Positions 20,281-22,812 are shown, counted from the stretch's first letter. The stretch is 27,438 bases of DNA from Sulfurimonadaceae bacterium (GCA_041571435.1 JBFFUI010000032.1:1-27438), one strand, 5' to 3'. A program made the numbers and translations. The notes: a model not told the origin generated them from the sequence alone.

Positions 20281-20311
20281 ATTGTAGTACAGAAGTGTTA
20301 CAAGAGTGCTA
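20281..20311 (-). promoter_or_regulatory. Putative autoregulatory box plus -10 for the response regulator
   Basis: Minus strand TAGCACTCTTG-TAACACTTCT-gtac-TACAAT. Confidence 0.55.
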
Positions 20312-20385
20312 AAAGTACGACCTTAACAATATGTTAATATGATATGAATAGAATAGAGTTCTAAATTGTTTTAAAGGAATAGATC

Positions 20386-20967
20386 ATGAAACCCCAATAC
20401 ACTGTACTTTACCGTATCTGGCACTGGACGATGGCTCTTTCCGTTGTCGGCCTGCTTGGCACCGTTGCATTGCGAAAAACGTTTTTGAGCTGGCATACGA
20501 ATGCGGATTTGATCCAGAATAAGCTGGCTGAAACAGGCACAGAGATTACCGCAGAGACCGCCAAGATGATCGCGCAGGCGATCCGTGCACCAATGTGGGA
20601 GTGGCATTATATTTTCGGACTTATTTTAGCGATCTCTATCGTTATACGTCTCTACATGATCGCGAGCAAACGTGCCGAGATGCCTTTAAAAACTGTGCTG
20701 GAGGCACCCAAAGAGGAGAAGCCTAAACGTCTGGTGCATCTGCTGCTCTGCTTTTCGATTATGCTTATGGCGCTGACCGGCGGATTTTATTACTTCCATG
20801 AGGCACTTGGTTTCAGCCATGATAGTGTGCATTGGGTTAAAGAGTTCCACGAAAATACGATGTACGCTGTTTTAGTTTTGGTCGTTCTGCACCTCGGCGG
20901 TGTTTTCCGTCATGAATTAACGACTAAAGAGGGGATTGTCTCCAAGATGATCCACGGTGAGGACTAG
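20386..20967 (+). CDS. Di-heme cytochrome b (b561 / Ni-hydrogenase CytB family)
   Basis: RIWHW, WHYIFG, KEFHE and LHLGG heme-ligand His positions in about four TM helices; AAGGA RBS. Confidence 0.85.
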   Translation: MKPQYTVLYRIWHWTMALSVVGLLGTVALRKTFLSWHTNADLIQNKLAETGTEITAETAKMIAQAIRAPMWEWHYIFGLILAISIVIRLYMIASKRAEMPLKTVLEAPKEEKPKRLVHLLLCFSIMLMALTGGFYYFHEALGFSHDSVHWVKEFHENTMYAVLVLVVLHLGGVFRHELTTKEGIVSKMIHGED

Positions 20968-20982
20968 AGGTATAAATGCCGA

Positions 20983-21011
20983 TTGACAGATACCGCTAAA
21001 AAGCCTATAGT
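20983..21011 (+). promoter_or_regulatory. Near-consensus sigma70 promoter
   Basis: TTGACA (20983-20988), 17-nt spacer, TATAGT (21006-21011). Confidence 0.7.
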
Positions 21012-21015
21012 TACA

Positions 21016-21107
21016 GAAGATAACTTCAGGGAGCATACGATGAACATTTACCTCGACTTCACATCAACACCGCGTATGTTCTCTTGGCGTGACGCCTAAC
21101 TTTTTTT
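21016..21107 (+). ncRNA. Candidate structured small RNA (alternatively mRNA of a 19-aa peptide, 21040-21099)
   Basis: Follows the promoter; 12-bp stem 21028-21039/21073-21084 with G-U pairs favouring the + strand; GGCG-TGA-CGCC hairpin then a T run. Confidence 0.5.
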
Positions 21108-21162
21108 CTCTCTTTTATAACCTGATATTGACAGACTGATTTTTATAATAAAAAGGATAATT

Positions 21163-21837
21163 ATGGCGTTACAGCTGGACGATTTCCTGATCACAGGAAG
21201 AACATTTGAGGAGTATTCCGCCTTTTTTGATTTAGATATCGAAGAACTGGAACACAAACGTGTATTGGACTGCCCCAGTGGGGTCAGCAGCTTTGTCGCG
21301 ACGGCTAACAGGCAGGGTATTGCTGCAGAGGGGTGTGATATGATTTATCGGTTCGCAAGGGCTGATATCGTGCATCAAGGCGAACTGTCGATCGATAAGA
21401 TCTATGCGGACACAACATGGATGCAAGGCCACAACCTTGCCTTTTACGGTTCGATCGAGGGGCATCGCAGTTTTAGAGAGCAGGCACTTGCGGGGTTTAA
21501 AGGCGACCATAATCTGCAACGTTACCGTTATGAGACGCTGCCATCGCTCTCTTATGCCGATGACAGTTTTGACCTTCTTTTAAGTAGTCATCTTCTCTTT
21601 GTTTATGACGATAGACTTGATCTTGATTTTCATATAAAAACGATTACGGAGATGCTGCGCGTGGCCAGAGAGGTGCGCATATTTCCGTTGATCGACTTTA
21701 TGAACAGCCGCAGGGATGAGACGGAGAATCTGTCACCCTTTGTAAAAGCCGTGATGGCACACTTCAATGCCGAGATCATTGCCGTCGACTTTGAATTTCA
21801 GCCCGGCGGCAATGCAATGATGCGACTTTGTCGATAA
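21163..21837 (+). CDS. Class I SAM-dependent methyltransferase
   Basis: VLDCPSG motif, FDLLLSSHLLF, EMLRVAREVRIFP; AAGGA RBS. Confidence 0.82.
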   Translation: MALQLDDFLITGRTFEEYSAFFDLDIEELEHKRVLDCPSGVSSFVATANRQGIAAEGCDMIYRFARADIVHQGELSIDKIYADTTWMQGHNLAFYGSIEGHRSFREQALAGFKGDHNLQRYRYETLPSLSYADDSFDLLLSSHLLFVYDDRLDLDFHIKTITEMLRVAREVRIFPLIDFMNSRRDETENLSPFVKAVMAHFNAEIIAVDFEFQPGGNAMMRLCR

Positions 21838-21853
21838 AGTGTTCAGGCACTAC

Positions 21854-22381
21854 TTACGATTGCGGCAGTTTTGGGCTGAGAAGTCTGTCGGCGATAAACC
21901 CCTGTAGTAAAGCTCCCAGTAGAATATAGAAGGTGAGGGCGATGGTAAAGCCGGTACCGAAGTAGGCGACCATCATCGGCAGCCACGGAAGCTTGATGGA
22001 CCTGGCGTAGAAGAACGTTACGATCAACCCGTCTCGTACGCCGTGTTTGCGCAGATCACTCAGCATCGGGTACCAGACATAGCCCGAGCCGTGGCTGAAC
22101 AGGCCGCTGAGCAAGGCGATCACCCACCCTTTCATACCGCTCTCTTCTCCCAGATGCTTTGCGATTTTCTTGGGCTGTATAAAGCTGTTGATGATGCTCA
22201 TCAATACAACGACAACAAGTAAGATCGGTAGAATGACCTGTAAGACCGCAAGACTGTTAGAAAAGGCGTCAAAGGCTTTTGCCGGATTGCCAAAGGCAGC
22301 GACAACATAGAGGGTAAGTACGATGGAGAGCATGATCCAGCCACTTCTGTGAGGTGTTTTATTGTTGCTCTTGTTGCGCAT
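21854..22381 (-). CDS. Predicted permease half-module (DUF318/ArsP-like)
   Basis: Multiple TM helices, KHLGEESG and G-x-G-YVWYP motifs. Confidence 0.75.
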   Translation of the reverse strand: MRNKSNNKTPHRSGWIMLSIVLTLYVVAAFGNPAKAFDAFSNSLAVLQVILPILLVVVVLMSIINSFIQPKKIAKHLGEESGMKGWVIALLSGLFSHGSGYVWYPMLSDLRKHGVRDGLIVTFFYARSIKLPWLPMMVAYFGTGFTIALTFYILLGALLQGFIADRLLSPKLPQS

Positions 22382-22812
22382 CAGAAAAGTCCTGCCGTTG
22401 CTACAGTCACCCAGGCAATCAACATCGCAAAAATAAGAGCGAGCAGGTTTCGTACAAGGGTAAAATGCAGGCCGAAAAGCGTATATTCCAAAGGAAGCTG
22501 AACCAGACCAAGGGTGACAAAAGAGATGATGAATGCGGTTACGGCATAGAGGGATATCCCCTCCTGGAGCAGCTCCCCGCCTATGATGTAGCTAAGGAAG
22601 GGTTGCCCGACCGAGACACCGCCGGTAAGCGTTCCGATCACGGTATCGTAAAGGGGCGAACCGGTAAAAAATGACTGCAGTATTTCGGGCGTTATATAGG
22701 CCTGAAAAAGTCCGACAAGCCCGATAACGCCAAGTAGCATCGGAGCAATGGTATAGAGCATGTTAAATGCGTTTACAAGCGATTTTAGAAAGGAAGGTTG
22801 CTGTGGTTTCAT
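22381..22812 (-). CDS. Predicted permease half-module (DUF318/ArsP-like)
   Basis: Multiple TM helices, GQPFLSYIIGGELL motif; 1-nt overlap with the partner gene. Confidence 0.75.
   Translation of the reverse strand: MKPQQPSFLKSLVNAFNMLYTIAPMLLGVIGLVGLFQAYITPEILQSFFTGSPLYDTVIGTLTGGVSVGQPFLSYIIGGELLQEGISLYAVTAFIISFVTLGLVQLPLEYTLFGLHFTLVRNLLALIFAMLIAWVTVATAGLF

Follow-up and report, generated by a model that had tools for sequence, protein, structure and literature searches.

A candidate leader-peptide attenuator, with a single invariant Trp codon, upstream of a methyltransferase-like gene in Sulfurimonadaceae

Here, we describe a short leader located upstream of a methyltransferase-like gene in a Sulfurimonadaceae bacterium. 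The stretch of DNA analysed (GCA_041571435.1 JBFFUI010000032.1:1-27438; 27,438 nucleotides) is referred to as the window. The leader contains a 19-codon open reading frame (ORF), with its own Shine-Dalgarno (SD) sequence, and precedes a gene encoding a 224-residue protein. We propose that it is a ribosome-dependent leader-peptide attenuator, acting in cis on this gene, and place the probability of this at roughly 0.65. The proposal follows from a conserved open frame, a covarying stem that sequesters the leader SD, strict linkage to one gene, and likeness to the leaders TrpL, MetL and LeuL. A first-pass annotation, made from the sequence alone, had considered a trans-acting small RNA (sRNA), an attenuator or riboswitch for the methyltransferase, or a peptide substrate of the enzyme. 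It is the attenuator that emerges best from comparison with homologues.

The leader is one part of a conserved unit. Using BLAST with the leader DNA, no leader match was found in 40 relatives outside the window's own genome; only the flanking coding parts were matched. Homologues were reached via the protein (326 homologous protein clusters). A locus search with the single protein gave 45 pattern matches, none of which was confirmed. Alignment A1 was then used as the query, and loci were collected from species genomes (75) and metagenomes (80 of 250 confirmed). Among Campylobacterota-like loci, 61 upstream regions were examined, 56 of them distinct, and the unit is present in 35 of the 56 (34 distinct leader sequences), although the groups compared are related and such counts overstate independence. 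A covariance model, R1, recovers all 35 leaders at E <= 6.4e-6, in agreement with a conserved element. The shared anatomy is simple. A TAnnnT hexamer is found 24-42 nucleotides (nt) 5' of the leader start codon in 32 of the 34 distinct leaders. An A-rich SD (AAAGGAG-like) follows, 5-8 nt 5' of the start codon. Further along, a pyrimidine segment lies directly 5' of an invariant UGG, and the stop codon is 1-8 codons past this Trp codon. The SD of the methyltransferase gene, in the shared unit, is AAGGAUA. Leader and gene are separated by a spacer of 36-76 nt, or 138-156 nt at two loci (L021 and L095) because of an insertion of about 100 nt. The insertion, at these Sulfuricurvum-type loci (L021, ~1000-1140; L095, ~477-600), has three short inverted repeats and is similar to a miniature inverted-repeat transposable element or a repetitive extragenic palindrome.

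The unit is linked to only one gene. In every case with a leader, the gene downstream encodes a homologue of the 224-residue methyltransferase-like protein. Conversely, flanking genes vary by locus (glyoxalase-like, tautomerase, CMD, flavin reductase, HxlR, LysE, hexapeptide and GNAT acetyltransferases, Pyridox_ox_2, DsrE, and others). The first-pass annotation named variable downstream genes as evidence against regulation in cis; such variation is confined to the flanks. In a sample of 141 genomes from the family, 16 have a homologue, close in ten cases. The leader is present in nine of these ten, the tenth locus being cut by a contig end, and in none of the six sampled genomes with only a distant paralogue. 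Other R1 hits, where checked, were leuA leaders, ordinary protein starts, or cases with no clear combination of leader and downstream gene. Nearly all hits in a class-wide R1 search were starts of membrane or secreted proteins; one was a true leader, a MetL. When the genome that contains the window was scanned for leaders of this kind, the output was noisy, and the leader described here was the sole clean case.

Such linkage bears on whether the RNA could be a trans-acting sRNA that merely precedes the gene, or a dual-function attenuator RNA like that reported for rnTrpL in Sinorhizobium. The leader does have its own promoter-like site, with a hairpin and U-run ~90 nt downstream, and sRNAs derived from attenuators are described in PMC6614838. 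However, the distance to the same gene is fixed, and the leaders retain their signals for translation while having a hypervariable loop. Furthermore, we found no second copy and no target-like, conserved, single-stranded seed. An sRNA is highly improbable, and the stand-alone version is at odds with an element that always occupies the same place before the same gene.

The leader SD is part of a 12-bp stem, P1, detected at the position proposed in the first-pass annotation. Codons preceding the UGG form the other arm (AGGGAGCAUACG with CGUAUGUUCUCU in the window). The window's P1 duplex has an energy of -17.6 kcal/mol (z score -3.5). For the 100-nt leader fold, the energy is -21.7 kcal/mol and the z score -2.43, with 5 of 200 shuffled sequences equally stable. 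Hence, the signal from folding one sequence is modest, and it is comparison of homologues that indicates a structure not due to chance. Note that, in MAFFT alignments A2 and A3, the stem arms of different groups are not in register. We therefore relied on duplex energies, on swapping of arms, and on covariance-model alignment. In most leaders, the P1 duplex ends 0-13 nt 5' of the UGG; the best duplex is 3' of the UGG in 2 of 34 (L050 and L089). Sulfuricurvum-type stems have energies of around -19 kcal/mol, mostly with z scores of -3.4 to -4.9 (for L025, the values are -14.2 kcal/mol and -1.3). Above the SD, the P1 sequence differs by group yet remains complementary: CAUACG/CGUAUG, AGCA/UGCU, AAA/UUU, and GGUAUUA/UAAUGCC. 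Own arms pair at -17 to -19.5 kcal/mol, compared to ~-9 to -12 kcal/mol with arms from other groups, and swapping arms between groups costs 6-10 kcal/mol (groups 1 and 2). When the arms of one representative per group were deranged, 0 of 1854 arrangements reached the observed sum. This arm-swap test is independent of any alignment. In alignment A5, which was fitted to the covariance model and so favours the modelled pairs, 78.5% of P1 cells pair, compared to 71.3% after shuffling, and the covariation score is 0.283, compared to 0.192 (the observed score is reached by 0 of 500 shuffles and by none of the slid controls, which all score lower). Compensatory types are seen at the three best P1 pairs (e.g. 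CG:13, AU:10, UA:4). We conclude, from these comparisons of sequence, that P1 is a genuine and covarying stem.

An SD sequestered in a stem, before a gene for an S-adenosylmethionine (SAM)-dependent enzyme, might also be expected of a riboswitch that binds a metabolite such as SAM or S-adenosylhomocysteine. Yet the region enclosed by P1 ranges from 20 to 69 nt, with no conserved nucleotides, while its reading frame is conserved. As the first-pass annotation had supposed, the element is not a known riboswitch: Rfam reports 0 families at the gathering score across the whole window. With the threshold relaxed to E <= 10, over 20900-21250, the sole match is GP20-b, at chance level and on the promoter (12.5 bits against a cut-off of 36.2; E 6.1). 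Given the free sequence and length of the loop, and the lack of an Rfam match, control by a riboswitch is extremely unlikely. A T-box was also considered, since UGGC could pair with a tRNA 3' end. This was dropped; the loop is without a conserved stem and Rfam gave nothing.

Selection appears to act on the reading frame. The leader ORFs are 18-33 codons long and none of the 34 distinct leaders interrupts the frame that runs from start codon, through UGG, to stop codon. Over the same span, the two alternative frames are open in 6 and 14 of the 34. Distances from start codon to UGG take seven values (45, 51, 54, 60, 69, 78, and 81 nt), all multiples of 3. Before the last six residues, the peptide varies freely (e.g. 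MTHYRTIDNTPLVR.., MRYHYNNDHNYFVQ.., and MKVKETSINAI..). Judged by its sequence, this is the pattern of an ORF for which translation matters and the product does not. Stem covariation, which the first-pass annotation had suggested testing against codon conservation, occurs together with an open frame. All 35 leaders have an in-frame UGG, always with C next; in the window this is codon 16 of 19, and L036 has two. The 8 of 34 leaders that have no GGC/GCC hairpin still retain UGG(C), and the U is kept even where it has no pairing partner. Both observations weigh against a purely structural role for the UGG.

One could argue that the 19-residue peptide is itself the product, for instance a precursor modified by the neighbouring methyltransferase. 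Indeed, the small ORF is strictly adjacent to the enzyme gene and one residue, Trp, is invariant. However, the N-terminal two thirds of the peptide is free in both sequence and length. The residues before Trp track the anti-SD sequence, and the tail of 1-8 residues past Trp tracks pairing with the first codons of the enzyme. Such an ORF does not accompany many of the enzyme's homologues, the leader being missing at 21 of 56 close and 91 of 91 distant loci. Nor does the neighbourhood contain any further conserved gene for maturation or export. A peptide substrate, as entertained in the first-pass annotation, is therefore very unlikely. Alternatively, the leader may sense nothing, with its translation opening the methyltransferase start once per transcript to give a low, fixed output. 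The lack of a run of regulatory codons, and sequestration of both ribosome-binding sites in the ground-state fold, would fit such constitutive coupling. It does not readily explain an invariant UGG, at a fixed place within peptides that otherwise vary freely, or peptide ends that resemble those of known sensing leaders. We consider it unlikely.

Beyond P1, the window contains two alternative pairings, P2 and P3. P2 is the GGCG-UGA-CGCC hairpin that, along with the U-run, was described correctly in the first-pass annotation. A hairpin of this kind (TGGC-N3-8-GCC) is found in 26 of 34 distinct leaders and missing in eight. The P2 hairpin is weak. In P3, the sequence UUGGCGUGACGCC (21084-21096) pairs with GGCGUUAC.GCUGG, covering the methyltransferase AUG and codons 2-6. 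At -17.7 kcal/mol, the window's P3 is equalled by 0 of 17 pairings with foreign tails or starts. It appears in both the minimum free energy and centroid folds of 21018-21185. Only in the minimum free energy fold is P3 extended, via UAA/UUA and the U-run with AAAAAGG, to cover the methyltransferase SD; 21100-21106 then pairs with the SD region at 21150-21156. The ground-state fold of the window sequesters both ribosome-binding sites. When 30 nt around the UGG are blocked in silico, mimicking a ribosome, the probability that the window's methyltransferase SD is unpaired increases from 0.33 to 0.92.

P3 is also strong in L016, L105, L038, L089, and L121. The L016 equivalent (-16.4 kcal/mol) has a different sequence, and that of L105 (-17.8 kcal/mol) pairs CUCUAG with UUAGAG. 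In the group with peptides ending ..WQF, AAUUCUAA pairs with UUAGAAUU at -11.5 to -11.9 kcal/mol. For L019 (-11.0 kcal/mol), 0 of 17 foreign starts beat the own tail, and 6 of 17 foreign tails are equal on the own start. As for P1, derangements with one representative per group never reached the observed sum (0 of 1854). Hence, P3 as modelled is well supported for the window and some lineages; it is not universal.

How might these parts work together? For translation, pausing, signal, output, and the order of events, we infer the following. A promoter just upstream would start the RNA, with the ribosome-binding site of the leader as its first feature. This site would be free only until the far end of the ORF has been transcribed, and then be closed in P1. 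Hence, leader translation would be largely limited to the first, co-transcriptional, ribosome. In the window, the leader tail (Trp codon, P2, stop codon, and U-run) would form P3 with the methyltransferase SD, AUG, and codons 2-6, so that the gene is shut. A ribosome that stops on the tail would cover both the P1 3' arm and the P2/P3 5' strand; a shortage of charged tRNA-Trp, with a pause at the lone UGG, is the most plausible cause, though the ribosome may be held in another way. P1 and P3 would then both melt and expose the methyltransferase start. Should the ribosome run through and leave, the two helices would form again. Where a lineage has no P3, a weak terminator may instead be provided by the small hairpin with the U-rich tract past the stop codon, and would be masked by the ribosome, as has been proposed for TrpL of Campylobacter. 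Compared to the classical 1-2-3-4 scheme, the segments are permuted, in the order SD, codons, tail with C/U tract, target.

Several results weigh against such an attenuator. First, the leader is missing at 21 of the 56 homologue loci, and R1 found 0 of 91 distant-homologue loci (Actinomycetota, Archaea, and others) with a leader; the best two matches there have E values of 0.18 and 0.28. Second, P1 is weak and unspecific in A/U-rich groups (L031, L105, L107, and L050), and the bias of A5 towards modelled pairs must be borne in mind. Third, P3 is not significant in the largest, Sulfuricurvum-type, group (L021 and L099), or in L031, L032, L036, L100, and L107. Averaged over 34 leaders, modelled opening of the methyltransferase SD is modest (0.38 to 0.52-0.56). 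Fourth, there is one regulatory codon, rather than a run, and we found no link between the enzyme and tryptophan. Since the frame is kept by selection, the UGG would be in frame by descent, and its frame is weaker evidence for that reason. The UGG also overlaps the conserved GGC of P2 and, because MetL has a near-terminal Trp too, could be kept for the RNA. Fifth, L019 has ATA at the start position (1881-1883), where all others have ATG or GTG. Finally, a simple terminator scan called no intrinsic terminator at the 4-bp hairpin and U-run; with only 4 bp, and 4 nt from the U-run, P2 would be a poor one. Note that the stem, UGG, and hairpin of L019 are intact; this may be either a decaying leader or one with a rare start codon.

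Termination is the crux of another explanation, in which there is transcription attenuation only. Here, P2 and the U-rich tract would end most transcripts ~90 nt from the start. A ribosome on the UGG, or on the stop codon, would mask the terminator or a Rho loading site within the G-poor spacer, and pairing with the methyltransferase start would be incidental. A GGC/GCC hairpin, then a U-rich tract, occurs in 26 of 34 distinct leaders, and a hairpin and U terminator is clear in the family's leuA leaders. The spacers have 3.9% G, compared to 23.8% in the window, with a C/G ratio of 6.2, and are thus rut-like. In addition, leader RNAs of C. jejuni are reported to end shortly past the stop codon (PMC3847290). 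However, the stem has just 3-4 bp, the U-run begins 4-8 nt later, the terminator scan makes no call there, and 8 of 34 leaders have no hairpin. Moreover, P3 complementarity is lineage-specific and better than with foreign partners. Transcription attenuation by itself is possible but, in our view, doubtful.

Coordinates of all features are in Table 1. The SD, spaced 6 nt from the 19-codon ORF, is as the first-pass annotation stated. The promoter and the first hairpin that it listed fared less well. TTGACA-N17-TATAGT is indeed present and matches the consensus at 11 of 12 positions. Even so, the promoter scan found two such sites in 20300-22500, where 3.2 are expected from shuffled sequences, so the match alone is not significant. 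Transcription would start near 21018. Among sequencing runs, those found to cover 20800-21900 were DNA runs, possibly the source of the assembly, and no RNA run was listed. A start ~7 nt past the -10 box would cut into the mini-hairpin, GAAG-AUAA-CUUC. The mini-hairpin exists in the window but none was seen among the homologous leaders, and it is probably not part of the conserved element. The 9-mer ATTGACAGA is present twice, in the leader -35 region (20982-20990) and in the spacer (21128-21136). The spacer also has a second promoter-like site, CTGATA-N16-TATAAT (21122-21149). Use of this site is doubtful because the start would fall within the methyltransferase SD. The leaders most closely related to that of the window have a different spacer, in which they share AGCAAGCAC and then a U-run.

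Table 1. Features of the leader and the adjacent gene in the window.
Feature	Position	Strand	Details
-35/-10 promoter-like site	20983..21011	+	TTGACA 20983-20988, 17-nt spacer, TATAGT 21006-21011
Mini-hairpin GAAG-AUAA-CUUC	21016..21027	+	From window sequence and fold; overlaps the inferred transcript start
P1 5' arm AGGGAGCAUACG	21028..21039	+	Holds leader SD GGGAG; from fold, duplex energy, and covariation
Leader ORF	21040..21099	+	19 codons, MNIYLDFTSTPRMFSWRDA, then UAA; GGGAG 6 nt 5' of ATG
P1 3' arm CGUAUGUUCUCU	21073..21084	+	Codons R-M-F-S; anti-SD to the leader's own ribosome-binding site
Trp codon UGG, C next	21085..21087	+	In frame; invariant in all 35 leaders
P2 hairpin GGCG-UGA-CGCC	21086..21096	+	From fold; bases double as 5' strand of helix P3
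C/U-rich, G-poor spacer	21100..21149	+	U7 at 21101-21107
Methyltransferase initiation region	21150..21178	+	SD AAGGA 21153-21157, AUG 21163-21165, codons 2-6
P3 3' strand GGCGUUAC.GCUGG	21165..21178	+	Within methyltransferase initiation region
Methyltransferase-like gene	21163..21837	+	224 residues; predicted class I SAM-methyltransferase fold; presumed regulated gene

We compared the leader to known attenuators. Classical attenuators of amino-acid operons (e.g. E. coli trpL) choose between alternative RNA pairings according to where the ribosome stands on the leader ORF. The same choice is proposed here. Unlike E. coli trpL, our leader has a single regulatory codon and not a run, and the window contains no strong terminator. 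The order of segments is also permuted; the codon segment pairs with the leader's own SD, 5' of the ORF. In translational attenuation of ermC and cat, a stalled ribosome frees a downstream ribosome-binding site that is paired with the leader. As for ermC, the leader ORF described here precedes a methyltransferase gene, the ribosome-binding site of which is paired with the leader (in the window, in silico, and not in all lineages). Unlike ermC and cat, the gene matches no known resistance family (Erm or Cat) above the Pfam or NCBIfam threshold, the leader's own SD is also sequestered, and we recognised no known drug-stall motif. In the arrest peptide TnaC, a conserved Trp is separated by 12 residues from a terminal Pro and the stop codon. 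Our leader also has a conserved Trp in a short peptide, with the stop codon as a likely site of action, and its G-poor spacer could load Rho. Conversely, its Trp is 1-8 residues from the stop codon, and there is no conserved Asp or terminal Pro across groups (a terminal Pro is found in the Sulfuricurvum-type group only). TnaC belongs to the tryptophanase operon (PMC3299997).

Similar leaders occur within the same phylum. TrpL, MetL, and LeuL of C. jejuni have short ORFs (~20-30 codons) with their own SD and promoter, and their translation is confirmed by Ribo-seq start-site peaks, according to PMC11955535. Like our leader, TrpL and MetL have a single Trp codon, 1-3 residues from the end, and then a U-rich tract. 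Leader peptides ending ..MFSWRDA, ..LRSWQF, ..SLFTSWR, and ..ALFWRLP resemble Campylobacter TrpL (..LRSWRF and ..SFSWR) and MetL (..CMRAWHA), as given in Table S12 of Porcelli et al. 2013 (PMC3847290). The same table lists no TrpL for the trp operons of Sulfurimonas, Sulfuricurvum, and Sulfurovum. Unlike TrpL, the leader here precedes an uncharacterised methyltransferase gene, not tryptophan biosynthesis or another amino-acid operon. R1 scores the MetL leader of one Campylobacter genome (G281) at 26.1 bits and TrpL of the same genome at only 14.6 bits (trpE was located via PF00425; PF04715 gave no match). The fold of Campylobacter TrpL RNA is no better than shuffled sequences, unlike the leader here. 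In the MetL leader of G281 (L226 1501-1600, minus strand), the Trp codon is inside a 6-bp hairpin, GCGUGC-UUG-GCACGC, just 5' of the stop codon. Hence, the near-terminal Trp codon of Campylobacterota leaders may have a role at the RNA level, besides or instead of coding. Furthermore, as MetL has such a Trp, the signal could be something other than Trp.

LeuL leaders are reported in most Epsilonproteobacteria, including Sulfuricurvum kujiense (PMC3847290). Those of Sulfurimonadaceae have the same stem, between SD and regulatory codons, as our leader. In other genera of the family, R1 hits include leaders such as MKSHHVHISKTMSGISSANLSLLLLHLL, preceding leuA (2-isopropylmalate synthase). The SD AGGAGAGA pairs with the first Leu codons UCUCUCCU, as in the methyltransferase leader design, and a GC-rich hairpin and U terminator lies ~45 nt past the stop codon. 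By analogy, these leuA leaders suggest that the permuted order of segments is a local design. The leuA leaders at L177-L185 and L195 encode peptides with runs of Leu (e.g. ..SLSLLLLHLL), and the ORF starts ~62 nt into each stretch. In the window's own genome there is no Leu leader before leuA, a gene that is divided between two contig ends (C42 and C43). The literature searched, from which subscription journals were outside coverage, contains no description of the element.

The first-pass annotation called the downstream product a SAM methyltransferase. The predicted fold and the Atlas neighbours agree, but family matches do not reach threshold. No Pfam or NCBIfam family is above threshold for the 224-residue protein (none at E <= 0.001). 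Sub-threshold Pfam matches are to Methyltransf_31 (E 0.011) and Methyltransf_11 (E 0.034). At E <= 10, Pfam adds only DapB_C to these two generic methyltransferase domains, all being below cut-off, and the Erm family is absent. The AlphaFold model is confident (predicted local distance difference test score 88.6), and Foldseek places it among class I SAM methyltransferases. The top matches are NNMT/PNMT and the tRNA m1A58 enzyme, with a TM-score of only ~0.4. Neighbours in the Atlas are clusters named 'SAM-dependent methyltransferase'. A PDB sequence search with alignment A1 gave chance-level rows only (viperin-like at E 0.02-0.04). Assignment of the protein as, generically, a class I methyltransferase rests only on the sub-threshold Pfam matches, the predicted fold, and the Atlas neighbours. 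One locus (L239, G046:C83, ~1420-1500) has a normal leader, MKMMKRHTNAITIFLRSWQF, but its methyltransferase homologue does not match the profile until residue 27. The usual N-terminal codons are in another frame, which suggests a frameshift or assembly error.

The gene neighbourhood indicates that leader and gene move together. Upstream in the window is a cytochrome b561 gene (20386-20967). Downstream, on the minus strand (21854-22812), adjacent ORFs of 175 and 143 residues each have a partial match to ArsP_1, a predicted permease. The pair resembles one permease encoded as two pieces, and is kept in congeners. In the four nearest congeners that have the region (L003, L004, L006, and L011), nothing separates the cytochrome b561 gene from the convergent gene for the permease. 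The block missing from these four is ~886 bp (20968-21853) and comprises the leader and methyltransferase gene. Hence, leader and gene were inserted or deleted as one unit. A homologous unit is found on plasmid pSULKU02 of a cultured strain, Sulfuricurvum kujiense DSM 16994, between SULKU_RS13830 and SULKU_RS13825, among genes for a GNAT acetyltransferase, an ABC ATPase domain, and a WYL domain. There, the methyltransferase homologue is annotated 'hypothetical protein', with no feature over the leader in a table of protein-coding genes only.

What would such an attenuator mean for these bacteria? A more specific scenario, tentative and somewhat unlikely, is that a mobile methyltransferase gene, in some cases carried on a plasmid, acquired a sensing leader similar to TrpL. 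Pausing at one Trp codon would, via the permuted four-segment switch, induce the enzyme. If so, its function would relate to tRNA-Trp, to the chemistry of indole or Trp, or to protection from a translation inhibitor, and the enzyme would be a stress-induced methyltransferase. Leader-peptide attenuators are textbook control of amino-acid operons. To our knowledge, they are rarely found on other cargo outside antibiotic-resistance genes. Leaders like TrpL and MetL are already known; what is new is such a leader on a non-biosynthetic, mobile gene. The proposed attenuator is conserved across Sulfurimonadaceae and neighbouring Campylobacterota, before a methyltransferase family that travels as a small cassette, and is an RNA element beyond the present families of Rfam. 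Its compact design, common to the leuA leaders, would use the leader's own Shine-Dalgarno sequence as a switching arm. Finding the condition that opens the switch would provide a handle on the purpose of this enzyme family.

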